Assembly (NCBI GenBank): GCA_038045945.1
Contig: JBBSXC010000003.1
Coordinates: 1 to 64,000, forward strand
DNA length: 64,000 bases
Source: Nanobdellota archaeon
GTDB taxonomy: Archaea > Nanobdellota > Nanobdellia > Pacearchaeales > GW2011-AR1
Reading direction: 5' to 3'
The translations under genes were made by a program, and so were the position numbers. Each line of letters opens with the position of its first letter. Within the stretch, counting starts at the first letter, position 1. The notes under the pieces were generated by a model. The model did not search any database. It saw only the letters and a program-made list of their open reading frames with translations, and was not told the DNA's origin. Shown in pieces: positions 27,314 through 43,176 of the stretch.

Positions 27314-27562
27314 CTATTTGTAAGCGTTCTTTCTATGTTTAACACTTAAAATTAATACCACTAATTTGTCATGATAAAGGTCAAGCATCAATCTATAATT
27401 TCCAATTCTTAATTTATATCCTGATTCGCCCACTAGTTTTTCTAAGAAATGTTCTGGTCTTATTTTTATTCTTTCTAAACCTGAACTAATTTGCTCTTGG
27501 GCAGTTTTATCTAATTTGAAAAATTGTCTTTCTGCATTCTGGGAGAATTCTATCTTATACAT
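27314..27562 (-). CDS. relE: RelE/ParE family toxin
   Basis: YKIEFS..A, YKLRIGNYR, V.HRKNAY. Confidence 0.9.
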   Translation of the reverse strand: MYKIEFSQNAERQFFKLDKTAQEQISSGLERIKIRPEHFLEKLVGESGYKLRIGNYRLMLDLYHDKLVVLILSVKHRKNAYK

Positions 27563-27779
27563 TCAGCTTTAATTCCTTCTTAATATCTTCAAAATTACGG
27601 AATTTACCCTCTTTATACTGTTTCCTTGACAGTTCCATCTCTCTTTTTACTTCATCCGATAATTCCATTCTATCTTCTAACAAATCCCAAATTAGGTTTT
27701 CATAACTTTCTTTAGAATGTATTTTCATACTTTTGAGCTTAGCGAGCAGCTCATTACTTATCTGTATGGTTGTATCCAT
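27555..27779 (-). CDS. RHH-type antitoxin
   Basis: MDTTIQIS..L...L..MK....ESYE..I; overlaps the relE start. Confidence 0.85.
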   Translation of the reverse strand: MDTTIQISNELLAKLKSMKIHSKESYENLIWDLLEDRMELSDEVKREMELSRKQYKEGKFRNFEDIKKELKLNV

Positions 27780-27862
27780 ATTAAGTATATAACTAGCTAT
27801 AGTATATAAACTTTTCTTAATATTAAAGTTTTTTCGTTAAGCTTTTAAACCGCCTTTTTCTC

Positions 27863-28252
27863 ATGATTTTCCTTATGAATAATCATTATGATGCAGTTAG
27901 AGCAGGTGCACAAGCATTAGCTAATGCTCTTGAAGGCATTACTGATTTTAGAGGGGTTTCTGACAGATTCTTCTTAAAACGCATCAATGACCGTGAAATT
28001 AATGCTACTACTCTTTATGGCGGTCCCTCTACTGACGCACACCTTTCTCATTCTAGCGGCAAATTATCATTAACTATTCCTCAATTTAGGGATCCTATTA
28101 TTGATGTTCACTTACCTGCTGACCACTTTGAAGTACCTGAAGGTTACGAAGTTGTTGGAAGAAACGGAACATTACACCTAAGAACAACTGCTAAGTCTAT
28201 AGAAGCACTACAAGAAGAAATAAGAAAAATAACAAGAATAAGAAGAGATTAA
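27863..28252 (+). CDS. hypothetical protein
   Basis: 129-aa ORF convergent with the cargo operon. Confidence 0.6.
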   Translation: MIFLMNNHYDAVRAGAQALANALEGITDFRGVSDRFFLKRINDREINATTLYGGPSTDAHLSHSSGKLSLTIPQFRDPIIDVHLPADHFEVPEGYEVVGRNGTLHLRTTAKSIEALQEEIRKITRIRRD

Positions 28253-28830
28253 TCCCTCACCCTATCTTCTGTATTAATCTCATAACTAGCATGTGGTAAG
28301 TGATACACTGGACTACTTGTTGAAAGTCTTAATGCTAACTCAATATCGTATCCGCTTTTCTTCAAGTCTTCACGATTTGGGGGCATTTGCTCGACCAATT
28401 CTCTAATACTCCTAACTGTTCTAACCTTAACGATGTTACATAAAGAACTACTACAGTCTCCCCTATAAGAAAATAATGCAACTTCTCCACCATACCGATA
28501 AACCTCTACGTATCGATCATCAATTCCCTGCTGAAAAACAAAGTTATCCTTATCAGTCTGATTATAAACAATTATTTCTTTTGAGTGAGGACCCCTAAAA
28601 AGGATTAGCTCATTGTTATCTAAAAAAATACTCATCTTAGGATTACTTTCCTTAACTGCCTCAAATCTAGTCGGGCCTGTAAAAAACATCATACCTTGGC
28701 CTTCCAAAGTCTTATTCATCCTTATAGCAAAAATATCCAAGGGCCTTACTGAAGAACAATCCATCGCTTCACTAACATCATAACCTCGAGAACTAAGATC
28801 TTCTAGCGGTGAAGGGATTGAAGTAGTCAT
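28249..28830 (-). CDS. hypothetical protein (last gene of the coupled cargo array)
   Basis: GGAGG SD with ATGA overlap; starts MTTS. Confidence 0.75.
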   Translation of the reverse strand: MTTSIPSPLEDLSSRGYDVSEAMDCSSVRPLDIFAIRMNKTLEGQGMMFFTGPTRFEAVKESNPKMSIFLDNNELILFRGPHSKEIIVYNQTDKDNFVFQQGIDDRYVEVYRYGGEVALFSYRGDCSSSLCNIVKVRTVRSIRELVEQMPPNREDLKKSGYDIELALRLSTSSPVYHLPHASYEINTEDRVRD

Positions 28831-29327
28831 TCTATCCTCCTTGTCAACCTAACCAGTTGGGAATCAATTATCTCCATCGTTTTTATATTGCTCATTGGCA
28901 TAGTCCTCATTCTAGAATGCTGAAAATCCAATGACGGAGCAAAAGCCCCCTTGCCTAGAACTTGGGAATCACTAATTACTAAACTTTCATCATTATGACT
29001 TCTATAGAACCCTGCTGCTCTAACATCATTATATATGTGTTCAGCATCCCAAGAGAGTGTTCCATAATATTGTACTAACAATAAGTCTCCCTCATTAACC
29101 TTTGATAAAACTAATCTGGGCTTATACTTTTCTGATTCTAATTCGTCCTGAACTTTCCAATCATTCAGGCCGTAAGCATGCATCTTCTCCCACAAATTCT
29201 TCCTTGATAAGCCTAGAACCGCTGCTGCTTCAGCTTTACGACCTTTAGTAAAAACTAAAGTATCCTTAATTGCTCTCTTTTCAACTTCGCGAACATAATC
29301 AGAAAGAGAACGAGGAAGAAAAGTCAT
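28827..29327 (-). CDS. Fis-type HTH (NtrC/bEBP C-terminal-like) fused to a domain paralogous to 30132..30482
   Basis: SLSDYVREVEKRAIKDTLVFTKGRKAEAAAVLGLSRKNLWEKMHAYGL; C-terminal EGD...Y...GFYR. Confidence 0.8.
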   Translation of the reverse strand: MTFLPRSLSDYVREVEKRAIKDTLVFTKGRKAEAAAVLGLSRKNLWEKMHAYGLNDWKVQDELESEKYKPRLVLSKVNEGDLLLVQYYGTLSWDAEHIYNDVRAAGFYRSHNDESLVISDSQVLGKGAFAPSLDFQHSRMRTMPMSNIKTMEIIDSQLVRLTRRIE

Positions 29328-29734
29328 TTTGTCTCTCCAGATTTTGATCTATCAATAATTTTTCTCAGAATATCCCTTACGTTATATGTCTCTCTTGAAA
29401 TATGTGCATCATTCATTCTTTTCCCAATTCTACCAAAGAGAGAACTAATCTTCTTTCTGTCATCTTCACTTATATCTTTATGAAATTCCACTGAAGGGTC
29501 ATACTTCAAATCCTCATTTAATGGGATGGCATAATTATCAAAACCTAAGCCGTAACCTAATGGTGACTCGTTGTAGTATCTAGTAACATAAAAATTTAAA
29601 CCACTAACCCTTGAAAAAAGCCTATCTTTACCAAGGCTGAGAGTCTGTGGAGAAGTATGAAACTTTAACCAAAAATCAGTAGGAATCTTATCAACAAATT
29701 CAATAACGTCATCAAGGGAAATATTAGAAGTCAT
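29324..29734 (-). CDS. hypothetical protein (array family A)
   Basis: SD+ATGA junction; DKIP...W and LF.RI pattern shared with 29731 and 30479. Confidence 0.75.
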   Translation of the reverse strand: MTSNISLDDVIEFVDKIPTDFWLKFHTSPQTLSLGKDRLFSRVSGLNFYVTRYYNESPLGYGLGFDNYAIPLNEDLKYDPSVEFHKDISEDDRKKISSLFGRIGKRMNDAHISRETYNVRDILRKIIDRSKSGETK

Positions 29735-30135
29735 TTTGAGTCCTCCACGAATCTTTCTAAATCGGACATTATAGCTTCACGATCAGACCATTCTTCTGTT
29801 GTGATGCTCTTATCAGTTTCTAATTTTTTATAAAGTCTGTTTAATCTATCATTTATTCCTTGAACCTGTCCATCAGGGCTTCCACAATCTGCAGAATCTG
29901 CTTCAATGGTTTGTAATACATCCAAAAAATCCGTATGAACTATTTCGATTGTTTTTTCTTTTGCTAACAGGTCTTTCCCTTCCATTTCAACATACCTATG
30001 ATATATTTTAGCTCTAAATTTGTCATTAAGCTTAGCAACATAAACTCCCATCCCATAATTTACTCTTCTCCATTCCTGAACTGGAATAGAATCAAGCTTA
30101 TCTAACAACTTATACAAAAATTCGTAAGAAGTCAT
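29731..30135 (-). CDS. hypothetical protein (array family A)
   Basis: SD+ATGA junction; DSIP...W, LY.KL; ends EDSK. Confidence 0.75.
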   Translation of the reverse strand: MTSYEFLYKLLDKLDSIPVQEWRRVNYGMGVYVAKLNDKFRAKIYHRYVEMEGKDLLAKEKTIEIVHTDFLDVLQTIEADSADCGSPDGQVQGINDRLNRLYKKLETDKSITTEEWSDREAIMSDLERFVEDSK

Positions 30136-30482
30136 TTTCCACTCCTAAGATATCTTCTACCGCCTTCTTCACAAGCGTCACCTAACTCCTTCTCAATATC
30201 CTCTCTTCCTTTAATCTTTGTTATGTTAAGAACCCAATCAGTAAGAACTTGTTTAGAATTGCTACTATCTCTAAGTCCTGGATAAGATGTCCTTTTAACA
30301 GGGCTTTCATGAATATAGAATGAACTATTCCCTTCCCTATAAGGCCTATAAAAACCAACACTTATTTCAACACCAACTACTTTTCCTTCAATAATAGGAA
30401 AAGCATAAAGAGCCCTAACCTCGTCACCCTCAACCAAACCATCAAGAGTTTTCAAAACCTCATCCTTAGACTGAAAAGTCAT
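30132..30482 (-). CDS. hypothetical protein (array family B)
   Basis: EGD.V...Y...VGFYR; SD+ATGA junction. Confidence 0.75.
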   Translation of the reverse strand: MTFQSKDEVLKTLDGLVEGDEVRALYAFPIIEGKVVGVEISVGFYRPYREGNSSFYIHESPVKRTSYPGLRDSSNSKQVLTDWVLNITKIKGREDIEKELGDACEEGGRRYLRSGK

Positions 30483-30883
30483 TTTGAGTCCTCCAAGATA
30501 TCAAGTTTAGATAAGGATCTTTCTTTTTTTCTTAATGCTTGGATTTCACGTGTCTTTTCTTTGATTTTATCTTTAGACTCTTTTTTCCTTTCTAATTCTC
30601 GATATTTATGATTAATCTTTCTATAAAGATTTAAAAATTTATTATTGCTAAAACCAACAATATCCTCATTAATACTTTCATCGTCTAAAGTTGCTTCAAA
30701 TTTGTCACAATATAACCCATAAGACAACATTCTTACTTTTAAATTATTTATTTTAATTTCATACTCATAAGAATAAGGTCCTGCGGTTTCCTTAACCTGA
30801 TCAGTAAGCAATATCTTGCTTGCAGGTACTTCAAGCAACTTTCCCGCCAACTTATCAAAACTAACCTTTCTAAAAGAAGTCAT
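30479..30883 (-). CDS. hypothetical protein (array family A)
   Basis: EVP, LYRKI, coiled tail; ends EDSK. Confidence 0.75.
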   Translation of the reverse strand: MTSFRKVSFDKLAGKLLEVPASKILLTDQVKETAGPYSYEYEIKINNLKVRMLSYGLYCDKFEATLDDESINEDIVGFSNNKFLNLYRKINHKYRELERKKESKDKIKEKTREIQALRKKERSLSKLDILEDSK

Positions 30884-31293
30884 TTCTCTTCCTCCTTAAC
30901 ATATTTTCCTTTGGCAAAATCAACATACCTAAATTCTATTAATCCGCGATTAACTTTAGAATAAACCTCAACACCGGCAACTAATAATTCATCATTACAT
31001 GTAAGTTTTTCATAAAAATCTTTTATAGAATCTAAACCTTCCAGTTTAGGAATCTGAACACGAACATAAGAATGCACTGGGATGTATAAACCGGCATTAT
31101 TGATAACAAATGTAGGTCTTGAATTTTCATTAAGGCAAGCTTCAAGTTTAAAAGTTGTCCTATTATCAACAACCCATTCTCTACCAAAAGCAAAGTGGGG
31201 AGAAGACTGAACTTCGCAAGAATAAACCCCACCTTCAACAACAAAATATTCTAAATCCTTTTTGTTAGGAACAAAATTACTAGGAAACATCAT
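30880..31293 (-). CDS. hypothetical protein
   Basis: GAGG SD with ATGA overlap. Confidence 0.7.
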   Translation of the reverse strand: MMFPSNFVPNKKDLEYFVVEGGVYSCEVQSSPHFAFGREWVVDNRTTFKLEACLNENSRPTFVINNAGLYIPVHSYVRVQIPKLEGLDSIKDFYEKLTCNDELLVAGVEVYSKVNRGLIEFRYVDFAKGKYVKEEEK

Positions 31294-31793
31294 TTTCTTT
31301 CAACCTCATATTTTCTTCTAGCTTGGGAACCTTTAAACATACCATAAAGTCCACCCATAGCTGAACCCATCCCTAAAAGAACAGAACTTAATCTTATGGC
31401 TTCATAAGGTAATTTTTGTTCATCAAAAGCTTTCATTTCTCCTTGATAATTTTGGTAAGCATCAGTGCTTGATAATCTTTCAAGTTCGCTATCAGCATAA
31501 GATAATGATTCATCAATACCTCTAGAAACCCCCTCGTAAAAGACTGATTTTCTTTTAGTCCTAAAACCTCTAGTGTCTCTTTCTTCTAACTGATTCTTAA
31601 TCTCTAATATTTCATTCTTAGCTTCATTAGTAACATCATAAAGAAAAACTTCAGTAGGCTCAATAGGCTTTTCATCATCTAAATAACTCAAAGCAGGACT
31701 AGAAACGCCCAGACCAATGGCGCTCAAAACTATTCCTGCTAAAGAATTACGAGTAATAGTTTTAGGATGAAGATCCATATTATCTAAAATCAC
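31290..31793 (-). CDS. 2-TM protein with helical loop (similar to 37902..38432)
   Basis: TM-helical region-TM architecture. Confidence 0.7.
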   Translation of the reverse strand: MILDNMDLHPKTITRNSLAGIVLSAIGLGVSSPALSYLDDEKPIEPTEVFLYDVTNEAKNEILEIKNQLEERDTRGFRTKRKSVFYEGVSRGIDESLSYADSELERLSSTDAYQNYQGEMKAFDEQKLPYEAIRLSSVLLGMGSAMGGLYGMFKGSQARRKYEVERK

Positions 31794-32220
31794 CCCTTAA
31801 GAGCATCTCAAGCATTTGTATAGTTACTCTTTCATCATTCAAAGCACGACCGCCTAAAGAAACAACATGGTTCCTAGCTCCACTAACTCCTGAGTTTAGA
31901 ACAAATTTATCTTTGGGAACTCTTGACATTATATAATAATAACCATCGTTTAGTCCATCGCAAAAATAAATATCTGCCTGAAGAATTTCATGAGTTAAAA
32001 TGTCTCTGTCATCTATAGCATGGATCCTCTTTGGGTCGTACTTGCTATCTCTAACATCTTCATCAAATTCTGCCTTAAAATCATCCCAAGATTCTAAGCC
32101 ATCAAAAGAAGTCTTAACGATTATTGCTCTAGTCTCTGGAATAGTAATTAATTCGCCATACCTAGAAGAGAAATCACTAAAAGAATCCTCATAAATAACA
32201 ATTTTAGGAGAAGAAGTCAT
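31780..32220 (-). CDS. atypical receiver (REC)-like protein
   Basis: KIVIYED, ADIYFCDG, VLNSG. Confidence 0.6.
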   Translation of the reverse strand: MTSSPKIVIYEDSFSDFSSRYGELITIPETRAIIVKTSFDGLESWDDFKAEFDEDVRDSKYDPKRIHAIDDRDILTHEILQADIYFCDGLNDGYYYIMSRVPKDKFVLNSGVSGARNHVVSLGGRALNDERVTIQMLEMLLRGDFR

Positions 32221-32630
32221 ATTTTTTCTCCCCTAAGTAATTTTTCTAGAAATCCTTGTGTTATCTCGATTCCTGAGTATGCTCTAACATTCTTTTTTTC
32301 AGCTAAGTATCGTATATCGTTATCTCCGGTGTTAAGAACTAATTTTTTATTATCGATCCTATCCATTAATGTTAATGCTTTTCCAACAAGTCCATCAGAA
32401 AAATAAATATCCGCTTGTTGGATATCATGAGAGTTTACTTCCTCGCGGCTAAGGGGATTAAAAGTTGTTAGTGGATAATTTGCTTCAACAAATCTTCTAA
32501 CCTTTGCAGGATCATCTAAGAATTCAACAAAGAAAACATTTACAGGCATAACTTTAAGAATTTCACCATAACGATCTCTCAATGAAGGCCATTCGTCTTC
32601 ATAAATAACAATTTTTGGAGAAGAAGTCAT
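32217..32630 (-). CDS. atypical receiver (REC)-like protein, paralog of 31780..32220
   Basis: KIVIYED, ADIYFSDG, VLNTG. Confidence 0.6.
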   Translation of the reverse strand: MTSSPKIVIYEDEWPSLRDRYGEILKVMPVNVFFVEFLDDPAKVRRFVEANYPLTTFNPLSREEVNSHDIQQADIYFSDGLVGKALTLMDRIDNKKLVLNTGDNDIRYLAEKKNVRAYSGIEITQGFLEKLLRGEKI

Positions 32631-32632
32631 AA

Positions 32633-33133
32633 CTAATCTTTCCTCCTTTCGTAAGAAGACTCAATACCTAATTTGTGTCTGACCTGAGAAACAACACGCC
32701 TACCAACATCATAGCCAAGTGAAGCAAGATAAGAAGCAATATCCCTATCACTAAAAGGAGCATTACTATCCTCGCTATCAATGTAAGATTTAACTTCATC
32801 AAAGACGTATTGGGGAATCTTGTTTCTTTCTCTCTCACTACTAGCTAATATTTCAGCATTCTTAACAACATCCTCAATACTACAAGAAATAGGAGGAGAA
32901 AGACGAAGATTTTGAAGAAAACCTGTATAGGGTTTACCACCACTACCGCCCAATAAATCAAGTTGCAACTTAGAGCGATCATAAACATTAGATCTATCAT
33001 AAACTTTAGGAAGATCAGCACCACGAGAATAATTAGACTTAGCACTAGGAGGCGGAGATGGGCTCTTATAACCGGGTCTGCCAGGAATATTCAACCTTTT
33101 CTTACGACCGCGAAACTTACCAGGCTTAGCCAT
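32633..33133 (-). CDS. stand-alone sigma-54 C-terminal RpoN-box HTH protein
   Basis: VKSYIDSEDSNAPFSDRDIASYLASLGYDVGRRVVSQVRHKLGIESSYERR resembles the RpoN pattern ED...PLSD..I...L...G..IARRTVAKYR..L.I.SS..R. Confidence 0.8.
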   Translation of the reverse strand: MAKPGKFRGRKKRLNIPGRPGYKSPSPPPSAKSNYSRGADLPKVYDRSNVYDRSKLQLDLLGGSGGKPYTGFLQNLRLSPPISCSIEDVVKNAEILASSERERNKIPQYVFDEVKSYIDSEDSNAPFSDRDIASYLASLGYDVGRRVVSQVRHKLGIESSYERRKD

Positions 33134-33135
33134 GA

Positions 33136-34434
33136 CTAACTATACCCCCTAGAACTTTTCTCAAAAGATTTCTTAGCCCTCTGGTATAATACTGAATTGC
33201 CAAATTCTCCATCAAGAAATCTTTCCTCACGAGGATCATGCAAAGGAGTACCCTTACTCAACTCAACAAACGCAAGTCTTTGATAAGGAGTATCACAAGA
33301 TTCACGCATCTCAGAAAGATGTTTGTGTTTCCCAGAAAGCTTGAACATAGCTGAGTGATAATGAAAATCACTCCAATAAAATTCGCCATCAGAAACATCC
33401 GATTTACTAAAAGAAGAAAGAATCTTAAAAATTTTTCTTCTACCAAATACTTTAGCAAGAGGCTGAGCATGATCAATATAGAAAGCCGCAAGCTTCATAG
33501 CAGAAGAATCAGAAAACATGTGAGAAGCACTAACAAAGAGACATTCAGCTTTCAAAGGATCACTCTTAACAAGTAATTCGGCCTGATCAGCAACAGCTCT
33601 GGCTAGAGCGGGATAATGATAAAGAGCATCACCCAGATGAGACTGGACACCGGTTAAATGAAACATGGTGTGATGGAAAGAAGAATCGCCGCCACCAATC
33701 CTCTTGAAAGCCTCAATACTTTTAATATAAGAATCATCATCAAAAGAAGCTTCAGCAATAAAAGAACTAAGAAGGTGAAGAGACCTGTTATCAGGCCAAA
33801 GAGTAAGACCCTTATCAGTCAATTCTCTAGCCTTGCCAAGATGGCCATCATGAGTAGCATCAGAAGCAATACTCTGAATAACGCAACTAAGACCTTGAGA
33901 GTAAGAAATCCTAACTTCTCTTTCACATTTAGAAGGCTCCCAATCAGCAGCAGTACACTCGATTGGAAAACGATCAACATCAAGAATCATGTGTTCAAGA
34001 GAAGCATACTTACCTAGAGGAGACTTCTTTTGACTAGTAGCAAGCTCAAAATGACCCATTTCGCCTTCAACTTCAACATCAGAACAAGCATCCTTAACGC
34101 CAGTTTGACACCTAAAACCAGCGCTGTAACCCTTGAGATACATGATACTCGCAATTAAGAAAGGAAGACCAACACAGTTCCCACCCTTGCGAGAAAGAAC
34201 ATCTTGAGGCCTGAAAGTTTCAGGAACGTATACAAAACCACTTCTTCTAAGGTCTCTCTTAATATCAAGAGCAGCGACTTTAGGATCAGAATCAACACTA
34301 ATAGAATCAGCAAGAAATTTCATTTCTCTAAGAGTCCTATCATCCGCACCACAAACCTCTAAGTAAGAAGAAACTTCAGCACTAGTCCTATCTCCTTGAA
34401 GTGCAGTTAGTGGTAAATCTAAAACATCAGTCAT
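33136..34434 (-). CDS. transglutaminase-like (SirB1-type) protein with TPR-like helical region
   Basis: VLSRKGGNCVGLP.L, EHMIL, IECT, followed by helical repeats (GLTLWPDN). Confidence 0.7.
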   Translation of the reverse strand: MTDVLDLPLTALQGDRTSAEVSSYLEVCGADDRTLREMKFLADSISVDSDPKVAALDIKRDLRRSGFVYVPETFRPQDVLSRKGGNCVGLPFLIASIMYLKGYSAGFRCQTGVKDACSDVEVEGEMGHFELATSQKKSPLGKYASLEHMILDVDRFPIECTAADWEPSKCEREVRISYSQGLSCVIQSIASDATHDGHLGKARELTDKGLTLWPDNRSLHLLSSFIAEASFDDDSYIKSIEAFKRIGGGDSSFHHTMFHLTGVQSHLGDALYHYPALARAVADQAELLVKSDPLKAECLFVSASHMFSDSSAMKLAAFYIDHAQPLAKVFGRRKIFKILSSFSKSDVSDGEFYWSDFHYHSAMFKLSGKHKHLSEMRESCDTPYQRLAFVELSKGTPLHDPREERFLDGEFGNSVLYQRAKKSFEKSSRGYS

Positions 34435-34555
34435 ATTTCATACTCCATTATTAACTTAGGAGTAGTGAATACGCTTGTAATATCTAACTGATATTAATGA
34501 TATGACTGATATTAAAAAGCGAAAGAGTTAAAAATAGCAAAATCTAGTAGTTTTT
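34435..34555. promoter_or_regulatory. divergent promoter/operator between cargo operon 1 and the AbrB-PhoU regulator
   Basis: ACTGATATTA direct repeat x2; TACTCC/GGAGTA hairpin overlapping the SD; TATA-like TTAAAAA. Confidence 0.5.
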
Positions 34556-35473: not shown

Positions 35474-35485
35474 ATTATTTGTTTC

Positions 35486-37045
35486 TTAATCTTTCTCTCT
35501 TCTTTCTTTTATCACTCTATCAGCAGTTCCTTCTCCCTGTTCCTTGTCAAGACTTTGTTTAGCGTCATAAAGATTTTTTGCTAATTCCCATCTGTCATGA
35601 ACTCTATCGCCGGAAGTATGAAATTGTGGTCTCATCCAGTTATCAACATAGTTATATGTTATTTGAAGAACTTTACTCTCGATATCATCTGGGTCCTTTC
35701 CTTCTGCTGACATTTCAAGTAGTTTGGTTTTTACGCTTTCATAATCTGTTCTTCCTCCAGCTCTAACTACTGCTTCATAAGTTACGTCTGGGTTTAGATA
35801 AGCTGCAATTGCCGTTTTTTCATCACCTAATTTTTCAACCCACGCTCTAAAATCATAAGCTTCAGTTATTTCTCCTGCACCTAAATTCAATGCTTCAGCA
35901 TCTAAGACTTTTTTGCCTTGAAGTGCAACACGAATGATTTTTTCTTTACGCTCATAACTCAAATCTTTTTTATTTGAGTCTACTTTTTGAGCAAGACTAT
36001 CCTTCTCTTGATTCAATGAAGTTACCTCGTTACGAATAGCAGCAAATCCTAAAGCTACAGCAGTCAAAGCACCATTTATCAAGAACCATCTCTTAGCCCG
36101 TGCACGAGGCTTTGATGATTCATACCTCTTCATTGCTTTACTAAATTCTTCTTCAAGTGATTCTCCATCCTTGTATCTATCTGATGGGTCATAAGCTAAA
36201 CACTTCCTCAAAAACGGTCTTAGAGGTTTAGGAATGTTTGATAATGAATCTTCAATCATACCTTTATATTCCTGAAGACCAATATTTCTCATTGATTCAA
36301 TTGGATCTTTAGAATTTTCTAACCTTTTTTCTGTAGGGTACTTACCACTAAGCAGCTTGACTGCTAGAGAACCAACTGACCAAACATCTGACTGAGTTGT
36401 TGGGTGAGAATTATCAGCAAATACTTCTGGAGCTCTGATAGCTACATGACCAATATTGTCTCTTGGGCTCTCACTCCAATCTTCTGGACTAACTGTTGTA
36501 GCAGTACCTGTATCGGCAATAACTAATCTTGTTCGACTACTGCCAGCCGGATCATAAGACATTATGTTATCAGAATTTAAGTCTCCATGAACTCTAGAGA
36601 AATCTGTGTGTAACTCCTTTACTCCATGAACTATGTCCTCTAGCCCTAAAAGGATGGTTTCTGTTCTCTTGCTTCCTTTAAGGTAATGGTTCCAGTATTC
36701 TTCCCAATTCCTTAGAGTACTATGACATTGAGGCATCCAAATAAATGGTTTACCATCAAGGTCTTTGAATGGAACTGATGGAAGAACGTTACGTGCTGGA
36801 GCAAATCTTGATTCTCTAATTAAGACATCAGTCTCATTAATGTTTCTATGAACTCTTTGCTTTTTAGCAATTTCTGATGGAGAAAAAACCTTTATTGCCC
36901 CGTGCTGACCACTAATAACATCAAAAGCAGCATAGACTGCTCCATTACTTCCTCTCCCCAACTCTTGATAATTAACAAATCTGTCAGAACGAATAACATC
37001 CTCATGACCATCACTCCTCTTAGGGATACTACTACTAGAACTCAT
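35486..37045 (-). CDS. membrane-spanning Hanks-type Ser/Thr protein kinase
   Basis: LGRGSNGAVY, AIKVF, HGDLNSDN, ADTG, RAPE, SDVWS, DP..RY, then a TM helix. Confidence 0.9.
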   Translation of the reverse strand: MSSSSSIPKRSDGHEDVIRSDRFVNYQELGRGSNGAVYAAFDVISGQHGAIKVFSPSEIAKKQRVHRNINETDVLIRESRFAPARNVLPSVPFKDLDGKPFIWMPQCHSTLRNWEEYWNHYLKGSKRTETILLGLEDIVHGVKELHTDFSRVHGDLNSDNIMSYDPAGSSRTRLVIADTGTATTVSPEDWSESPRDNIGHVAIRAPEVFADNSHPTTQSDVWSVGSLAVKLLSGKYPTEKRLENSKDPIESMRNIGLQEYKGMIEDSLSNIPKPLRPFLRKCLAYDPSDRYKDGESLEEEFSKAMKRYESSKPRARAKRWFLINGALTAVALGFAAIRNEVTSLNQEKDSLAQKVDSNKKDLSYERKEKIIRVALQGKKVLDAEALNLGAGEITEAYDFRAWVEKLGDEKTAIAAYLNPDVTYEAVVRAGGRTDYESVKTKLLEMSAEGKDPDDIESKVLQITYNYVDNWMRPQFHTSGDRVHDRWELAKNLYDAKQSLDKEQGEGTADRVIKERREKD

Positions 37046-37200
37046 TCTAAAACCTCCACTATTGGTTCATCAATAATATCAATAGAAAGCCTAACTATGG
37101 TGCCTGGTTTAAGTTTTCCCTCAATTGATCGAGGAATAACAATTATAGATTGAGAACCATGCTTAGCAATACGCTTAGTAAGAGAAAATTTCTTAGTCAT
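37042..37200 (-). CDS. small AbrB-like (swapped-hairpin) protein
   Basis: TKRIAKHGSQSIIVIPR....LKPG..V.LSID; ATG at 37200; ATGA overlap with the kinase. Confidence 0.8.
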   Translation of the reverse strand: MTKKFSLTKRIAKHGSQSIIVIPRSIEGKLKPGTIVRLSIDIIDEPIVEVLE

Positions 37201-37317
37201 TTTATGTATAAAATACATAAAGAAAAAGACTATATAAAGCTTACGAAGTAGTGTAACTAACAAGTGGTAATAATGTCTAGAAAAAGCCTTAAATATAAGT
37301 AATCCCTAAAGATTACT

Positions 37318-37554
37318 ATGAAGACTATTACTATAAAGCTTCCTGAGAGAGAAGCTGAAGAGCTTGAATTATTTGTTAAGTCTAGCGGTTATCCTTCGAA
37401 ATCGGAATTTATTAGACACTTAATAGTTGGTAAGATGGGTTTAGAAAGAAAAGAAAAGCTCGGATGGATGATGCTTGGCCAAAAAGCTTTAGCTAAAAGA
37501 TGGAATAATCCTAAAGATGATAAGGTATGGAGCAGTTATATAAAAAATGATTAA
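37318..37554 (+). CDS. CopG/RHH antitoxin
   Basis: ITIKLP...GYPSKSEFIR; W....DD.VW tail; GTAATC/GATTAC palindrome just upstream. Confidence 0.85.
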   Translation: MKTITIKLPEREAEELELFVKSSGYPSKSEFIRHLIVGKMGLERKEKLGWMMLGQKALAKRWNNPKDDKVWSSYIKND

Positions 37555-37888
37555 TCAAGGAGACTTATTATTGGCGCCTTTTCCCTTTTCAGATCAGTCT
37601 GGAAGAAAAGTAAGGCCTGTAATTGTTATTAGTAATGACAAATATAACTCTCATCATGATGATATAGTTGCAGTTGGTGTAACGTCTAACGTTTTCAAAA
37701 ATCCATACTACATTGATTTCACCAATGCTGACTTAGACTTTGGTAATCTAGTAACTGTTTGCTCAATAATGGCTGATAGTCTAACACTGCTTGATAAAGA
37801 ATTGATTACTAAAAGAATCGGTAAAGTTAACAAGAACAAAATGAAAACAGTTTTTGATAAAGTTGTTGAAATAATAAAAACTAAATAA
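37547..37888 (+). CDS. mazF: MazF/PemK family toxin
   Basis: GDL.L.PFPFSD....KVRP.IVISN, VTSN, IGK. Confidence 0.92.
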   Translation: MINQGDLLLAPFPFSDQSGRKVRPVIVISNDKYNSHHDDIVAVGVTSNVFKNPYYIDFTNADLDFGNLVTVCSIMADSLTLLDKELITKRIGKVNKNKMKTVFDKVVEIIKTK

Positions 37889-37901
37889 ATTTAGTCATCT
37901 T

Positions 37902-38432
37902 TTAATGATCCCACTCGCCTTTTGATTCCTGAGTGGGTTTTTCTTTTATTATTTCTCTGAATCTTATTGCTCCTTCATCATAAATTGCTGATTCTCTTCT
38001 TTCAGCAATCTTATAGCTTGCATAACCTAGTAAAGTTAAAGCACCAAATGTTCCCATTAACGCTTGATGTAGGGGATTATTATCATGTTCTCTTCTATCA
38101 TTTTTATAAGTAATTACTGATTCTTCTTTAGAAGAAAGATTTATCTCTTGGTCTAATTTCTTTATGGTTTCATCAAATTTGGCTGCTAATGGTTCTTGAT
38201 AAATCTTTAATTCTTCTCTAACATTATTCGTTCCTAAAGACCAAAGCTGACTTTGAAGACCATTTCTATAATTAACCAACAATCGATAATGATCATAACC
38301 CATGGTTTTAGGCCTGTCAGGGCCTCCAAATACCCAAAAACCAAGACTAGAAGCTAAACCTAATGATGAAAGAGCAAAAGTAAGACTAGAACAACGCTTA
38401 ATTCTCTTAACAGAATCTAACCGAGAAGTCAT
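37902..38432 (-). CDS. 2-TM protein with helical loop (similar to 31290..31793)
   Basis: MTS start with ATGA overlap; TM-helical region-TM. Confidence 0.7.
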   Translation of the reverse strand: MTSRLDSVKRIKRCSSLTFALSSLGLASSLGFWVFGGPDRPKTMGYDHYRLLVNYRNGLQSQLWSLGTNNVREELKIYQEPLAAKFDETIKKLDQEINLSSKEESVITYKNDRREHDNNPLHQALMGTFGALTLLGYASYKIAERRESAIYDEGAIRFREIIKEKPTQESKGEWDH

Positions 38433-38746
38433 TTCTTTTTCCTCTCACTCAAAAAAGAGTTAATTGCCTTAGACAAGTCTGGTTTGTGTGAATCTCTGCT
38501 TCTTAATGACTCATAATAATTATCATAAGAAGAAGTGTTACTTCTATAACTTCCACCCCACTCAAATAATCGCCAATTATCATTATCAACAACAACCAAG
38601 TCGGATCTGCCATCGCCATTAAAATCTAAAGAATAAACTTCGCGAGGATCATAATCAGAAGAATTATTGCCCAGAACGAAACCAGCAGATAAAACGCCTA
38701 AAGCACAAGCAGCAAATCCCATCTTTCTTAAATTTTCATCAGACAT
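38429..38746 (-). CDS. small anchored protein with FG-GAP-like Ca-binding motif
   Basis: N-terminal hydrophobic helix; DFNGDGRSDLVV. Confidence 0.7.
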   Translation of the reverse strand: MSDENLRKMGFAACALGVLSAGFVLGNNSSDYDPREVYSLDFNGDGRSDLVVVDNDNWRLFEWGGSYRSNTSSYDNYYESLRSRDSHKPDLSKAINSFLSERKKK

Positions 38747-38760
38747 TTTTCTTTTCTCCT

Positions 38761-40002
38761 TTACTTAAAATTATAAGTTAAGCCAAGCATACCTGAATAA
38801 GAATTTTTACCTTCTACAGGCATAGCAGCACGAAGGGCGAAGTCTAAACTAAGACTCTTATCAGCATTAGTGTAAATTTTAGCTCTTAAATCAGCATTAT
38901 TAACACTCAAACTCTTATCATTAAGATCAGAATGCCTACCAACTTGTAAAACAACATCCTTAATCCATGAATCACTAACGCTACCTAAACCAACAGCAAC
39001 ATCGGAGTTAAAGTATCTGCTTGAAGGTTCATCATGATACTTAACGTCAAAACTAATGCTGCCTAAATTACCACTATTGCTAGCTGAAGCACCAAAGAAA
39101 TCAATTCTAGAGTCGCCATCACCGATGCCGAAAGGGAAAGTAGCATCACCATCTCCACCAAGGAATGGAGTAATGGAGTTGAAAAGAGTGTCCTGAGTAC
39201 CAACAAGGAAAGCACCACCTGGAGCCTTCTTACCAAAACGAACCCTAGCCTCAAAACCCTTATTTTGGCCTTGAACAGTATCAAAAACTTTAGCTTGAGT
39301 GAGAACTTTGTAACCGTCTATAGCACTATTAGCATCAGACCACTTGTAAGAGAAAGCAGTGTTAAAAGTATCAGAATCATTAACTCTATGACCGCCAATA
39401 CCAAAATCAATCTTATTATCATTAAATACTAAAGCATAACCAAAATTACCATCGCTATCAGCAGTAACCTGAGGTTTAAACTTATCAACATTAAAACCGA
39501 TAGCACTAGCAAGTCGGTTCTCAAAAGGTTTAGCATTATCCTGGAATTCAAAATTAAGGAAGTCAAGAGTACTATCTTTGAATGATTTCTCAAGCATAAG
39601 GCGACCATTATCCAAAGATGAATCTAAGAAAGACTGATAACCCGCATTAAAGCGAACACCAGTATTAGACTCAGACTTACCAAAAGTTAAGTCAGCACCA
39701 TAAATATTAGATCCGTTCTCGCCACGATAAGCAACCTTACCTAAATCACTAGAAAGAATCTGGTGAGTTTGCAAACCACCATGACCATCAGCATAAGCTC
39801 TAGAAGTCAAAACTACAGAATCAACAGCCCTTTCTAAGTCAGACTTAGCTGGAGCATTATCTCCGGCTAGAGCACTAGCTCCAAGAGCATAAGGCATCAA
39901 GGCAGCAGTTAAAGCTGCAACATTAGCCATTTTCCTTATACTTTTTCTTATTGTTTGTTTCATTGTATTTTTATCCATCATCTTATGGTCTGTCGTAACC
40001 AC
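38761..40002 (-). CDS. signal-peptide protein with beta-barrel-like amphipathic strands
   Basis: Basic N-region, hydrophobic core and ALA cleavage site; alternating strands; C-terminal YSGMLGLTYNFK. Confidence 0.6.
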   Translation of the reverse strand: MVTTDHKMMDKNTMKQTIRKSIRKMANVAALTAALMPYALGASALAGDNAPAKSDLERAVDSVVLTSRAYADGHGGLQTHQILSSDLGKVAYRGENGSNIYGADLTFGKSESNTGVRFNAGYQSFLDSSLDNGRLMLEKSFKDSTLDFLNFEFQDNAKPFENRLASAIGFNVDKFKPQVTADSDGNFGYALVFNDNKIDFGIGGHRVNDSDTFNTAFSYKWSDANSAIDGYKVLTQAKVFDTVQGQNKGFEARVRFGKKAPGGAFLVGTQDTLFNSITPFLGGDGDATFPFGIGDGDSRIDFFGASASNSGNLGSISFDVKYHDEPSSRYFNSDVAVGLGSVSDSWIKDVVLQVGRHSDLNDKSLSVNNADLRAKIYTNADKSLSLDFALRAAMPVEGKNSYSGMLGLTYNFK

Positions 40003-40122
40003 TTAATGATAACATAATAGCAGAAATCTTGGGATATAAACATTTTTATTAAACTATATAAACTAGTATAAATCTATATATATTTAGGAAAAGCTTAAAT
40101 ATCGGTCTATATTAACAATCAA

Positions 40123-40998
40123 ATGAAACGTAAATTAGTACAACAAGGGGCTAGCACAATGATGATTAGTCTACCTAGCAAGTGGGTTAAGGCAAATAAC
40201 CTGATAAAGGGGAGCGAAGTGGACATGGATGAAAAGGGTAAAGAAATAGTTATTTCAACTTCAATCAAGAAAGATAATGAAAAAAAGGCCGTAGTGGACC
40301 TATCAGGATATGATTTGCTAATAAACAGAGTTATAGTTTCTCTATACCTTAAGGGATATGAGGAAGTAGAACTAATATTCAAAAACCGTGAAGAAATGAA
40401 GAAAGTGAAGAAGCATGTCCTTGAAGAATTGCTTGGTTTTGAAGTAATAAAACAGGAACAAAATAAGATGATCATAAGAGACCTTACAGGTTTTGAAAAA
40501 CAAAATATTGATGATGTGATAAAGAGGATATTCTTCGTTCTAGATGGGATGCTTGAAGACTTAATTAATGCTGTAAACAAAAAAGAAAGCCTTGATGGAA
40601 TAGTCGACCTTGATTCAAGCATTAATAAGCTGACACACTTTTCACTTAGAATACTTAACTCTAAAGGATATTCTCAAGCAGATAAGACCGAAGAATTCTA
40701 TGGTATGATCTCGATACTTGAACAAATTGGCGACTTAATAAAACAATTAGTGATGGACTTAACAAAAGACAAACTTTCAACAAACCAACTAGAAGTAATC
40801 AGAAAAATTAGATTACTGTTAGATATTTTTTGCAAAATATTGTTTAAGTTTAATAAAGAAGAAGCTGTTAAATTCGCAAAACTATACCAAGAAATAAAAG
40901 ATTCAATAAAGAATAAGAATAAGGTTGACTTAACGCTTAACCAGATTAACGAGGCGATAATAAGAATGAATAACCACTTGCTGGTAACCGTGTTATAA
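40123..40998 (+). CDS. AbrB-PhoU family archaeal regulator (paralog of 34556..35473)
   Basis: RKLVQQGASTMMISLPSKWV...L.KG, LLGFEV, LEQIGD. Confidence 0.88.
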   Translation: MKRKLVQQGASTMMISLPSKWVKANNLIKGSEVDMDEKGKEIVISTSIKKDNEKKAVVDLSGYDLLINRVIVSLYLKGYEEVELIFKNREEMKKVKKHVLEELLGFEVIKQEQNKMIIRDLTGFEKQNIDDVIKRIFFVLDGMLEDLINAVNKKESLDGIVDLDSSINKLTHFSLRILNSKGYSQADKTEEFYGMISILEQIGDLIKQLVMDLTKDKLSTNQLEVIRKIRLLLDIFCKILFKFNKEEAVKFAKLYQEIKDSIKNKNKVDLTLNQINEAIIRMNNHLLVTVL

Positions 40999-42588
40999 TT
41001 ATATGTCTTGATGGTAGTAAGCAAGCCAAGCATCAACAAACTTTCTCCCATCTTTATCTAAAAACTTTCTGTAAGACTTGTAATCATTACTATTAGATTT
41101 AGACTTTACTTCTCTTAATTTACCAATTCCGGATCTTGAGACTACCATCGTATCTTCAACGTCTACATTACCCTTACTATCTCGGCATTCTTCAATTGCC
41201 ACTTCTAGTGATGCAGCAATTGTTGGGAAAAAGGGGCCAAATGCTGGATCATTCTTATCAAAATCTTTATTGTTCAACTTGGCAAATAATCTTGATTGAT
41301 ACTCTGTTAATCTTTCGCCTCTAACATCTGAATTTGCTTGTGCGAAACTCTTAGCAAAATAAGCAACAATTTTATCCTTTGATGCTAACTTAGCGTACCT
41401 GTCAAAACCTTGTTGAATCATGCCATCAGCAGTTTCATAGTCTAAATATTCCTGGCTACTTTCTGAAACGAAAGATGTTTGTTTGCCTTCAAAAATCTCA
41501 TCTTTTGGTTGATAAAGCATTCCCCTAACTTCTTGATCTGATAATTGTCTTCTTTCTGGAATTAATGAAGAAGCATAAATGCCAAAACCTATTAGTCCGC
41601 CAAGCCCTAATGCTCCTAAACCAAACCTTCTAGTATACTTTTTGAATTCATTCATTACGTGAGACTTATCAAGTGTTCTTTCTAAGTTTTCTTTAAGGTC
41701 TGTACCGTTGCTAAACCTTTTATTTTCATCAATATTAAGTCCTTTTGAAAAGAACTTTCTTATCCTTCTGTCACTAATTTTCTCTTTAATTCTTCTATCT
41801 ATGAATTCTTGTATAGCCTCTTTACTTGAACTCTTTATCTCATCATAACTTAAACCCTCTAGGGGGTATTCCCCAGTTTTTAACTTAAACATTAATGCTG
41901 TAGCACTATAGGTGTCTGTTCTCTTTGTAGGGTGACTCCCTTCATTAAAAAGTTCTGGGGCTCTAGTTAAAAACCATCCGATATTATCTCTTGGGGACTG
42001 AGTCATTCCCATACCTTCAACCGTTGATGCACCAAAATCATTAAGTAACAATCGTCCCTCTAAATTAATGGCAAAATTTCCCGGATGACCATCACCATGG
42101 ACTCTGTTTAGTCCTGCCTTTGAGTGAACTTCGCTATATGCCGTTGCAATATCCCTCACATAATGATCAAAATGGGGTTCTACCTTCTCCTCCCATGATG
42201 AAGGATTATAAGGATTATCTTTTGCTATAACCTCTAACATTTTATCTAAAAACATGTCGTAAGGGGGCATTACAATGAATCTTCTACCATTCTTATCGAC
42301 TTCAAATCTTGTTGGAACAACTCTTGAACAAGCAGAAAGCTGAACAGCCTCATTATCCATTGCTTTATTCTCATCAAGATTTCTCTTAGGCATCTTACCT
42401 AAAGCTTCATCCGTTGGAGCAAAAACTTTTATTGCAACATCCTGGCCCGTTATTCTGTCTTTACCCTTATAAACAATACCCCAAGAGCCCATACCGTAAA
42501 TCTCTGCAGGATCAAAAGAATACCTATAAGAATCAATGATCCCAGGGTTCCCCCTTCTAGAGACAAAAGAATTATCCGTTTCAGTCAT
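40999..42588 (-). CDS. membrane-spanning Hanks-type Ser/Thr protein kinase (paralog of 35486..37045)
   Basis: GMGSWGIVY, VAIKVF, HGDGHPGN, NDFG, SPRDNIG, RAPE, then a TM helix. Confidence 0.9.
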   Translation of the reverse strand: MTETDNSFVSRRGNPGIIDSYRYSFDPAEIYGMGSWGIVYKGKDRITGQDVAIKVFAPTDEALGKMPKRNLDENKAMDNEAVQLSACSRVVPTRFEVDKNGRRFIVMPPYDMFLDKMLEVIAKDNPYNPSSWEEKVEPHFDHYVRDIATAYSEVHSKAGLNRVHGDGHPGNFAINLEGRLLLNDFGASTVEGMGMTQSPRDNIGWFLTRAPELFNEGSHPTKRTDTYSATALMFKLKTGEYPLEGLSYDEIKSSSKEAIQEFIDRRIKEKISDRRIRKFFSKGLNIDENKRFSNGTDLKENLERTLDKSHVMNEFKKYTRRFGLGALGLGGLIGFGIYASSLIPERRQLSDQEVRGMLYQPKDEIFEGKQTSFVSESSQEYLDYETADGMIQQGFDRYAKLASKDKIVAYFAKSFAQANSDVRGERLTEYQSRLFAKLNNKDFDKNDPAFGPFFPTIAASLEVAIEECRDSKGNVDVEDTMVVSRSGIGKLREVKSKSNSNDYKSYRKFLDKDGRKFVDAWLAYYHQDI

Positions 42589-42761
42589 TTCTTTACCTCC
42601 TTTTCTTCAACCTTTATTTTGTCTTCTAAAACATCAATAGACAACTTAACAATCATACCAGGCTTAAGGTGCTGCTCAAGAATTCTCGGAACAACAATGA
42701 TTGCCTGGCTACCATGCTTAGCAATACGCTTAGTGATAATAAAGTTTTGTTTAGAAGTCAT
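42585..42761 (-). CDS. small AbrB-like protein (58 aa, not in the ORF track; paralog of 37042..37200)
   Basis: MTSKQNFIITKRIAKHGSQAIIVVPRILEQHLKPGMIVKLSIDVLEDK...; ATGA overlap with the kinase. Confidence 0.85.
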   Translation of the reverse strand: MTSKQNFIITKRIAKHGSQAIIVVPRILEQHLKPGMIVKLSIDVLEDKIKVEEKEVKK

Positions 42762-43072
42762 TACTCATGCCACCCTTCCATTGATGAATCAAGAGATTTA
42801 GGAGAATACCTAAGAGAAAGAAGTCTAACAAGCGGCTCTAAAACTCTTTTTTCTTCAGGTTTAAAACCCTTAATAGAATGACTACCAGAAAAATGATCTG
42901 GGCGTACTAATGAATCCTCAAGGACACTTCTTAACAAATCGTTAAAAGAGGTATAATTTCTAACTTTCATATCGAAAACAGTTTCACCGCTCTGATTACC
43001 AAAAAGACTAATAAAAGTATAACTACAAATACCCTCTTCATCAGTTCTTTTAAGTGAAACTTGGTAAGCCAT
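42761..43072 (-). CDS. hypothetical protein
   Basis: Likely ATG at 43072; TAATG overlap with the small AbrB-like gene. Confidence 0.65.
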   Translation of the reverse strand: MAYQVSLKRTDEEGICSYTFISLFGNQSGETVFDMKVRNYTSFNDLLRSVLEDSLVRPDHFSGSHSIKGFKPEEKRVLEPLVRLLSLRYSPKSLDSSMEGWHE

Positions 43073-43176
43073 ATTTTTATTATAAATTATACATCCTTTA
43101 TGTATAGAAAATGGAAGCAAAAAGGGTATAAAAACCTTACTAAATGTAATCACTAAAGAGTTACACTAAAATGAGT

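Follow-up and report, generated by a model that had tools for sequence, protein, structure and literature searches.

How do archaea with very small genomes and few regulators control what they place at the cell surface? For the DPANN archaea, how hosts and surroundings are sensed is largely unknown, and the question takes a concrete form in a stretch of 64,000 nucleotides from a Nanobdellota archaeon of the order Pacearchaeales (positions 1 to 64,000 of contig JBBSXC010000003.1, assembly GCA_038045945.1; hereafter the window). Between positions 27,314 and 43,072 the same order of genes occurs twice: a gene for a small protein ahead of a membrane kinase gene, a regulator gene that converges on the kinase gene from the other side, and an operon, the cargo, that diverges from the regulator. 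A reading made from the sequence alone (the sequence-only reading) had described an old, reusable chassis carrying swappable cargo and stabilised by toxin-antitoxin (TA) pairs, possibly triggered by host contact. We favour, with moderate confidence, the view that the two copies are Ser/Thr-kinase signalling cassettes of a type conserved across Nanoarchaeota-type DPANN, each complete in itself and each with a regulator that would control the divergent cargo.

A gene order shared across the class

The genome that holds the window (G000; 847 kb, seven contigs, 93% complete) was set beside a second genome of the same genus (G001) and beside other genomes and loci, coded G and L with a number. It contains exactly two copies each of the small protein (Abr), the kinase (Kin) and the regulator (Reg), and all of them lie in the window (hairpin classes are defined below):

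34556-35473, plus strand: Reg1, regulator of 305 amino acids (aa) with an AbrB domain and a predicted PhoU-like part, hairpin class I (MazE_antitoxin E 0.006, below cut-off)
35486-37045, minus strand: Kin1, Hanks-type Ser/Thr kinase of 519 aa (Pkinase E 1.7e-24)
37042-37200, minus strand: Abr1, small protein of 52 aa whose stop overlaps the Kin1 start by 4 nucleotides (nt)
40123-40998, plus strand: Reg2, regulator of 291 aa with an AbrB domain, an alpha/beta middle domain and a predicted PhoU-like six-helix bundle, hairpin class II
40999-42588, minus strand: Kin2, Hanks-type Ser/Thr kinase of 529 aa (Pkinase E 1e-14) whose stop abuts the Reg2 stop
42585-42761, minus strand: Abr2, small protein of 58 aa that overlaps the Kin2 start by 4 nt

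All open reading frames (ORFs) of the two copies were found where the sequence-only reading had placed them, and the three protein pairs that it called paralogous are so: the kinases are 32% identical over 301 aa (E 4e-34), the regulators 30% over 183 aa (E 4e-17) and the small proteins 63% over 49 aa (E 2e-20). The signatures that it had picked out of the paralogs (TKRIAKHGSQ; SPRDNIG...RAPE..SHPT; LLGFEV) can be seen in the alignments of these proteins. As for the cargo, BLAST finds no similarity between the first genes of the two copies, in a comparison of the cargo 1 protein W1_432 with the three cargo 2 genes.

The arrangement extends well beyond this genome. Modules in which a kinase gene faces a convergent regulator gene number 38, in 36 loci spread across the order and other families of the class, and 36 of these modules lie in genomes other than that of the window; the homologs carry the source names Candidatus Pacearchaeota, Nanoarchaeota and Woesearchaeota. 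Kinase matches occur in 73 of 301 genomes within the order, where the best 20 kinase loci comprise 13 with an adjacent convergent regulator, three cut by contig ends and four without one. In the phylum sample taken beyond the order (301 high-quality genomes), kinase matches were obtained in 121, and the best 20 of those loci divide into 16 with a convergent regulator, two cut by contig ends and two without. The small Abr protein gives 22 matches, in 14 of 61 related genomes, and six of the 20 matches outside the window genome (L014, L015, L018, L020 and two in L023) are followed by kinase, convergent regulator and divergent gene. Of the 301 genomes of the order, 99 encode regulators of the AbrB-PhoU family, most of which have no link to a kinase. 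The conserved neighbourhood across DPANN genomes thus bears out the three-gene chassis that had been proposed.

A one-off local duplication without conserved meaning would fit the adjacency of the two copies in the window genome. It is refuted by the 36 further modules in other genomes and by the regulator tree, in which the window copies fall into different deep clades (support 100 and 98-99). Since each of these clades mixes families of the class, the duplication is an old one. Against a local event stands also G001, which holds two modules orthologous one-to-one to those of the window, with module 2 placed differently relative to the flanking oxidase genes; its copy 1 chassis is 51-80% identical to that of the window. 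We regard a one-off duplication as next to impossible.

The 3' ends of regulator and kinase genes overlap or abut in 26 of the 38 modules, which leaves no room for terminators. The pair might therefore be held together only by convergent transcription, with the overlapping ends giving antisense or interference control and no signalling at the protein level. Yet the ends lie 1-100 nt apart in nine modules and more than 100 nt apart in three, where insertions of 0.9-1.4 kb carrying genes are tolerated between regulator and kinase. The pairwise identities of the regulators also correlate with those of the kinases (Mantel r 0.56, with 0 of 2000 permutations as high), and such co-variation is easier to explain by interaction of the two proteins, though shared species history contributes. 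Coupling by convergent transcription alone is, in our judgement, very unlikely. Both G001 modules (L014 5093-6135; L053 6352-7349) have a nucleotidyltransferase and HEPN pair inserted between regulator and kinase, with a spacing of 1.4 kb.

Two variants of the gene order were observed in passing. The G124 locus (L036 2539-2712, 4697-5101) has an ACT-domain gene between cargo and regulator and a second Abr-family gene within the cargo operon, and the G369 locus (L064 6674-9948) has a tandem pair of module-type kinases ahead of a single convergent regulator.

The kinase, the small protein and the regulator

Both window kinases exceed the Pfam gathering score of 31.7 for Pkinase (Kin1, 87.1 bits; Kin2, 55.0 bits). 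The catalytic-loop residues H164, D166 and N171 (H-x-D-x4-N) and D184 of the DFG motif are invariant in 21 of 21 module kinases, and the Gly loop and the alphaC Glu are nearly so. In each of the same 21 proteins the strongest hydrophobic 17-mer stands directly past the kinase domain and is followed by a tail of 56-534 aa; K/R residues precede the hydrophobic segment in most of them, both window kinases included. Kin1 has a single membrane helix at about 321-337 and a C-terminal tail of 182 aa, and Kin2 a helix at about 327-343 and a tail of 186 aa. Because a hydrophobic segment after the kinase domain and a variable tail recur in all 21, the predicted topology of the module kinases is that of receptors, with the catalytic domain in the cytoplasm and the variable tail outside. 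Pkinase has four matches in G000, of which Kin1 and Kin2 are the sole long ones, the other two being short frames of 264 and 213 aa. No HisKA/HATPase_c or receiver domain was found by Pfam in Kin1, Kin2, Reg1 or Reg2.

The slot ahead of the kinase is occupied by the Abr family in 22 of the 38 modules and by a ribbon-helix-helix (RHH)-like protein in eight; it is cut by a contig end in two and holds something else or nothing in six. The small genes mostly overlap the kinase start, and their products have 41-78 aa. The RHH-like proteins (L032, L038, L046, L055, L062, L063, L072 and L074; 41-63 aa) are unrelated to the Abr family and share a pattern of the type K-I-S-I-S-V...F-R-N-R-S-H-A-F-E. 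One of these eight was flagged by script and seven were read by eye from unclassified rows, and RHH_1 matches two of the eight, below threshold (E 0.004 and 0.011).

Abr1 and Abr2 have no match in Pfam, NCBIfam or PDB sequences, and a profile alignment of the small protein to the AbrB domain of the regulators by hhalign, in the expected register, is weak (E 0.012, probability 3.5%). For these two reasons the name 'AbrB-like' given by the sequence-only reading is a plausible label only, and that identity is unproven. The family comprises 3353 proteins at E <= 1e-3, all without a Pfam domain, and includes double forms of roughly 100 aa; its genes also directly precede AAA_5 ATPase, GHKL ATPase and ABC binding-protein genes (L027 8005-8151, L028 7955-8110, L016 4864-5034). 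That one slot takes two types of small protein points to a small partner with a conserved role, which is made along with the kinase and possibly binds DNA. A complex prediction for Kin2 residues 1-320 with Abr2, both supplied as alignments, scored 0.00 and gives no verdict.

A small gene of DNA-binding type that overlaps the start of a larger gene is also the layout of type II TA operons. The module could accordingly be TA-like or a defence module, the small protein serving as antitoxin or repressor and the kinase as growth-arresting toxin or infection sensor, with regulator and cargo as bystanders. The filling of one slot by two unrelated antitoxin-type folds would suit this explanation, as would the bona fide TA pairs of the region, the Abr-family genes ahead of AAA_5 and GHKL ATPase genes, and the best PADLOC and NCBIfam kinase matches, which are the defence kinases mad6 and PD-T4-6. 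Those matches, however, are generic and fall below the curated cut-offs (57.2 bits against 460 for MAD6 of MADS; for PglW of BREX, also an anti-phage kinase family, 16.7 against 990), and PADLOC, run on the small protein, the regulator and four of the cargo proteins, finds no match among them. The membrane helix and outside tail predicted in all 21 kinases are typical of receptors, and a TA or defence function does not account for why kinases across the class are tightly linked to exported cargo and to a transcription factor that has an operator of its own. We consider it quite unlikely.

The regulator joins two recognisable parts. Reg2 matches MazE_antitoxin (PF04014) at 25.3 bits against a cut-off of 24.7; Reg1, at 16.9 bits, is below the cut-off but homologous to Reg2. 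Over a family alignment of 64 members MazE_antitoxin is found in 64 at E <= 0.01, and PhoU (PF01895) in eight. The AlphaFold2 (AF2) model of Reg2 (predicted local distance difference test, pLDDT, 91.7) has an AbrB-like N-terminus, an alpha/beta middle domain and a bundle of six long C-terminal helices. The best PDB matches of this bundle in Foldseek are the PhoU structures 1t72, 2i0m, 4q25 and 3l39 (probability 1.0, E about 0.04, template modelling (TM) score 0.51-0.57 on the target), and on this model the C-terminal part is a PhoU-like fold. The regulator profile gave nothing significant against PDB sequences.

A PhoU-like fold raises the alternative of a nutrient (Pho-like) regulon, in which this domain would sense phosphate, metal or a metabolite and set the expression of an uptake pore or binding protein, the kinase being a modulator or a separate entity. 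Homologs of the regulator are indeed named 'phosphate uptake regulator' in their source records, and porin-like barrels and Peripla_BP_6 proteins (G036 in both copies, G260) are found among the cargo. Nevertheless, archaeal AbrB-PhoU proteins are described in the available text of PMC6316755 and PMC7325993 as general transcription factors with several paralogs per genome. Nor does such a regulon account for the near-obligate adjacency of the kinase, and no phosphate transporter genes were seen in the module gene maps. We rate it as unlikely.

Candidate operators, cargo and neighbouring genes

Regions upstream of the regulators were compared between genomes, with 760 pieces from the same loci as controls, and one candidate block was found for each window copy:

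34475-34517: candidate operator of class I, in which repeats of the TGATAT type stand in tandem shortly before a TATA-like box and the start of Reg1, with a direct repeat at 34482-34497 / 34500-34515
40034-40098: class II operator/promoter candidate, a TTATTAAAC...TAGTATAAA...TATATA block with palindromic parts, ending at a TATA-like box

Thirteen other regulators have the class I block upstream, with 28-40 of its 43 positions in agreement; the controls average 21.0 and reach at most 27, with the exception of one piece that matches the second module of L023. For the class II block the other regulators number 18, the agreement is 39-59 of 65 positions, and the controls average 29.4 with a maximum of 37. 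The upstream elements are roughly 45-65 nt long and come in two classes, and a class I or II block stands upstream of 33 of the 38 regulators, well above the control pieces. Each block is single copy in the G000 genome. The class I block of G001 departs from that of G000 at 2 of 57 positions, with flanks that are barely alignable. Both blocks end in a TTAAATA/TTAAAAA-type box about 22-25 nt ahead of the regulator ATG, which we take, from the archaeal consensus, to be the TATA box. A statistic of internal direct and inverted repeats over 35 intergenic regions was barely higher than in shuffles (10.4 against 9.9 matches of 12). The module regulators are only 25-45% identical among themselves, and such deep conservation of the DNA blocks argues for selection on them.

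The DNA classes have a counterpart in the protein. The AbrB hairpin of the regulators is either G-G-G-[FYL]-T-I-Y-L-P-K-K-W-like (class I, 17 of 38 regulators) or [AS]-T-[LM]-M-I-S-L-P-S-K-W-like (class II), and the operator class is concordant with the hairpin class in 33 of 33 assigned modules; a stricter pass with regular expressions gave 0 discordant. On a tree built without the AbrB domain the hairpin class changes nine times, with at least five changes forced by well-supported branches, and the DNA class changes seven times. The match between operator and hairpin classes lends strong comparative support to the binding of the regulator to the divergent regions that the sequence-only reading had predicted.

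The cargo itself is read from the following genes, all on the minus strand:

38761-39963, minus strand: first gene of cargo 2, an exported predicted porin-like transmembrane beta-barrel of 400 aa
37902-38746, minus strand: two small genes of cargo 2, 176 aa and 105 aa
28249-34434, minus strand: cargo 1 operon of 12 genes with gaps or overlaps of <= 14 nt
33136-34434, minus strand: cargo 1 gene 1, 432 aa, transglutaminase-core and TPR-like (Atlas look-alikes are Transglut_core2/TPR clusters at 0.94)
32633-33133, minus strand: cargo 1 gene 2, a helix-turn-helix (HTH) protein like the sigma-54 DNA-binding domain (Sigma54_DBD E 1.8e-10)
32217-32630 and 31780-32220, minus strand: tandem paralogs of cargo 1
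28827-29327, minus strand: cargo 1 gene 11, Fis-type HTH_8 (E 4.5e-11)

The first divergent genes of the modules fall into several BLAST families, among which several families of exported proteins recur. An aromatic end combined with a hydrophobic N-terminus is found in 14 of 37 first divergent genes and in 47 of 351 other ORFs of the same loci, and 6.3% of the 851 ORFs of G000 end in Phe. A crude signal-peptide rule, a weak discriminator, selects 22 of 37 first cargo genes and 126 of 351 background ORFs. Further cargo includes the Peripla_BP_6 binding proteins already named, lipoprotein-like proteins and some proteins that are apparently cytoplasmic. The swappable cargo of the sequence-only reading holds as far as turnover goes, since homologs of the 12 cargo 1 genes are entirely absent from C18 and C7, the two G001 contigs examined; it is not a free-for-all, because exported families recur. 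The cargo turns over on a stable chassis and draws mostly on exported envelope proteins. A single cargo superfamily gained no convincing support: hhalign comparisons of the alpha, beta and epsilon families with the window barrel family reached a best probability of 68%, in the signal-peptide region only. Base and amino-acid composition of cargo and kinases lies inside the 5-95% range of the genome and so gives no sign of recent foreign origin.

The first protein of cargo 2 is a predicted pore. The gene stands as earlier described, with a different start: it had been begun at the GTG at 40002, and the homologs point to 39963 as the most likely position. The AF2 model (pLDDT 82.4; predicted TM score, pTM, 0.79) has an N-terminal helix and about 20 strands. 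Foldseek gives 164 matches in the PDB at E <= 1e-3 with TM about 0.45, and the 49 top matches listed (ranks to 50) are all outer-membrane barrels (OccK/OprD, MOMP, OprB, the BamA barrel, AlgE, FadL); an Atlas search agrees. The protein has a hydrophobic N-terminal segment at 15-33. Phe is the last residue in five of five homologs, and the window protein ends in Phe followed by one Lys. The barrel family has 16 matches among 1.84 billion representatives, no second member was found in G000, and no porin or outer-membrane protein (OMP) family of Pfam or NCBIfam matches the protein. Omp85 (PF01103) has no match in the 93%-complete G000, in a search that as a control matches 7 of 14 reference genomes.

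These features allow a bolder proposal, which we hold only tentatively and think doubtful as a whole: Pacearchaeota-type DPANN would export true outer-membrane-style pores, with signal peptide and terminal-Phe beta-signal, without Omp85/BamA, and each pore gene would be governed by a dedicated receptor Ser/Thr kinase together with an AbrB-PhoU regulator and its own operator. Such pores would be located either in the membrane of the host or in an outer layer of the symbiont that has so far gone unrecognised, and the cassette would be the switch for their deployment. A possible distant porin-like relative is mentioned for Altiarchaeales in the available text of PMC12228718; a literature search that did not cover supplementary files found no description of Pacearchaeota porins. 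If the cargo barrels are real pores, they would be rare outer-membrane-type barrels in archaea and bear on the exchange of material with partners. If the larger proposal is true as well, the cassette would be an archaeal counterpart of two-component porin control and a molecular handle on DPANN-host exchange.

The rest of the cargo is more varied. Of the two small cargo 2 genes, only that of 105 aa (38429-38746) reaches the hydrophobicity threshold near its N-terminus, and it also has a weak FG-GAP match. Homologs of the first gene of cargo 1 occur in 3 of 300 other genomes of the order. The first two cargo 1 genes recur as an adjacent pair in G134 (L080 8019-9397), in housekeeping surroundings and on a contig other than that of the kinase module. 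PHROG has no match for the 10 of 12 cargo 1 genes that were scanned.

Two observations on the cargo stand apart from the argument. Bacterial-type DNA-binding domains (Sigma54_DBD and HTH_8) lie on two small proteins of this archaeal operon, and the use of sigma-54 is not known from archaea. Cargo genes also very often begin with M-T-S or M-T-F (window 28249-34434 and 37902-38746; L013, L031, L052), because the ATG overlaps the preceding TGA stop (ATGAC...), a sign of tight translational coupling.

Around the modules the window has two TA pairs and a further ORF:

27314-27562, minus strand: ParE/RelE-type toxin of 82 aa (ParE_toxin E 6e-07, 30.4 bits against a cut-off of 23)
27555-27779, minus strand: putative antitoxin of 74 aa that overlaps the toxin gene (DUF7557, 24.6 bits, just under the cut-off of 25)
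37318-37554, plus strand: RHH antitoxin (RHH_1 E 4.4e-05, 23.7 bits against 20.5)
37547-37888, plus strand: PemK/MazF toxin (PemK_toxin E 1.1e-14, 54.9 bits against 23.1)
42761-43072, minus strand: ORF upstream of Abr2, 103 aa from the ATG at 43072, whose stop overlaps the Abr2 start (TAATG); no Pfam match

The TA pairs are real by Pfam. The stabilising role once given to them finds no support, since their type and position differ between G000 and G001 and most other modules were seen without them. Orthologs of the window RHH and PemK/MazF pair adjoin module 1 in G001, which also has two MNT-HEPN pairs inside its modules, and a small AbrB-type pair lies near the module of L065. Beside most other modules no TA pairs were seen in the gene maps and the neighbours looked housekeeping, in a survey without systematic annotation of neighbours. 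The pairs are neighbours and not part of the conserved module. As for the remaining surroundings, the ORFs of 103 and 126 aa in window 42761-43557 appear co-transcribed with Abr2 and Kin2, downstream of a FAD-oxidase-like gene pair, and two neighbouring genes with slight overlap at 26390-27311 each encode two PRC-barrel domains.

The proposed circuit and its relatives

How might the parts work together? In the cassette that we favour, a single-pass membrane Hanks kinase with its tail outside would be translated together with the small protein of the Abr or RHH-like type. The AbrB and PhoU-like factor would bind its private operator through the AbrB hairpin, directly upstream of its own TATA box. 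That operator, of class I in copy 1 and class II in copy 2, would lie in the region shared with the divergent cargo operon, and the cargo would usually be exported envelope proteins: porin-like beta-barrels, lipoproteins and substrate-binding proteins. A signal from outside would change the activity of the kinase, which would phosphorylate the regulator and possibly the small protein too, and phosphorylation would change the occupancy of the operator and hence the expression of regulator and cargo. The sequences themselves show the gene linkage, the domain content, the conservation of catalytic residues and operators, and the agreement of operator class with hairpin class; the phosphotransfer is our inference, as are the direction in which regulation runs, the kind of signal, any trigger by host contact included, and the part of the small protein. 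For the step from kinase to regulator we lean, by analogy, on Hanks kinases that act on AbrB in Bacillus subtilis and on pairs of the PknH-EmbR type.

Several points weigh against this proposal. The phosphotransfer, the expression and the DNA binding are argued from evidence at the level of sequence. No PP2C_2 phosphatase and no FHA domain was found in the G000 genome, and Pfam PhoU has no match at E <= 0.01 on Reg1 or Reg2. The small protein is not specific to the kinase, because it also heads operons without one. The region upstream of the kinase operon has no class I or II block, and five modules (L036, L042, L047, L072, L074) have no assigned operator class. Just two independent pairs, both concordant, fall on well-supported branches, and this number does not suffice for a test. 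No more than about 150 nt of DNA separates the operator from the hairpin codons, so that a single recombination tract could switch both without functional coupling. Finally, some cargo is not exported, namely the first gene of window cargo 1 and a 267-aa protein of G001.

What makes the signalling cassette worth pursuing is its concreteness. Its two copies account for all receptor-type kinases of the 847-kb genome, and the cassette is a recurrent one within the class; it would be a testable signalling unit with a candidate kinase substrate and a defined output, the exported envelope proteins; and its two operator classes, paired one-to-one with two AbrB hairpin classes, offer the basis for a specificity swap. 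A literature search that did not cover supplementary files found no description of the cassette, in line with the view of the sequence-only reading that this is not a described system; its parts, Hanks kinases and AbrB-PhoU regulators, are known families.

Among known proteins, the regulators share their domain pair with the archaeal SpoVT/AbrB and PhoU factors, as described in the available text of PMC7325993 and PMC6316755 (TK2245; the Pyrococcus furiosus PhoU family). The window type differs in its extra alpha/beta middle domain and in the lack of a significant Pfam PhoU match, and the kinase link sets module regulators apart from most members of the family in the order. The cargo 2 protein resembles OccK/OprD-type porins and other barrels of 16-20 strands in its signal-peptide-like N-terminus, its about 20 predicted strands and its near-terminal Phe. 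It differs from bacterial porins by the absence of a Pfam porin match, by TM-scores of about 0.45, by an archaeal host without an Omp85 match and by its tiny family. The small genes recall type II antitoxins of the AbrB/MazE and RHH/CopG folds, with products of likewise 41-78 aa, an overlap with the downstream start and two alternative types in one slot. Here, in contrast, the downstream gene encodes a membrane receptor-type kinase rather than a small toxin, and neither type of small protein passes a Pfam cut-off.

As a circuit, the cassette follows the logic of bacterial two-component systems with a divergent target operon: a sensor kinase in the membrane is paired with a DNA-binding protein that regulates its own gene and a neighbouring operon. 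It has no HisKA/HATPase or receiver domain, and the chemistry would be Ser/Thr phosphorylation. A further likeness is PknH-EmbR of Mycobacterium tuberculosis, an alternative to two-component systems in which a single-pass membrane Hanks kinase of receptor type is encoded beside its cognate transcription factor, thought to be controlled by the kinase. The cassette regulator, unlike EmbR, is an AbrB and PhoU-like protein without FHA; its gene converges on and overlaps that of the kinase, a small co-translated protein is added, and the host is a DPANN archaeon. Phosphorylation of AbrB by Hanks kinases in B. subtilis was reportedly described by Kobir et al. 2014. There, according to the available text of PMC6213207, the kinases PrkC, PrkD and YabT phosphorylate AbrB and change its DNA binding, which is the action of a Hanks kinase on an AbrB-fold regulator that we propose for the cassette. 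The genes of B. subtilis are unlinked and AbrB is global, whereas the archaeal kinase and regulator form a dedicated pair with a private, single-copy operator.

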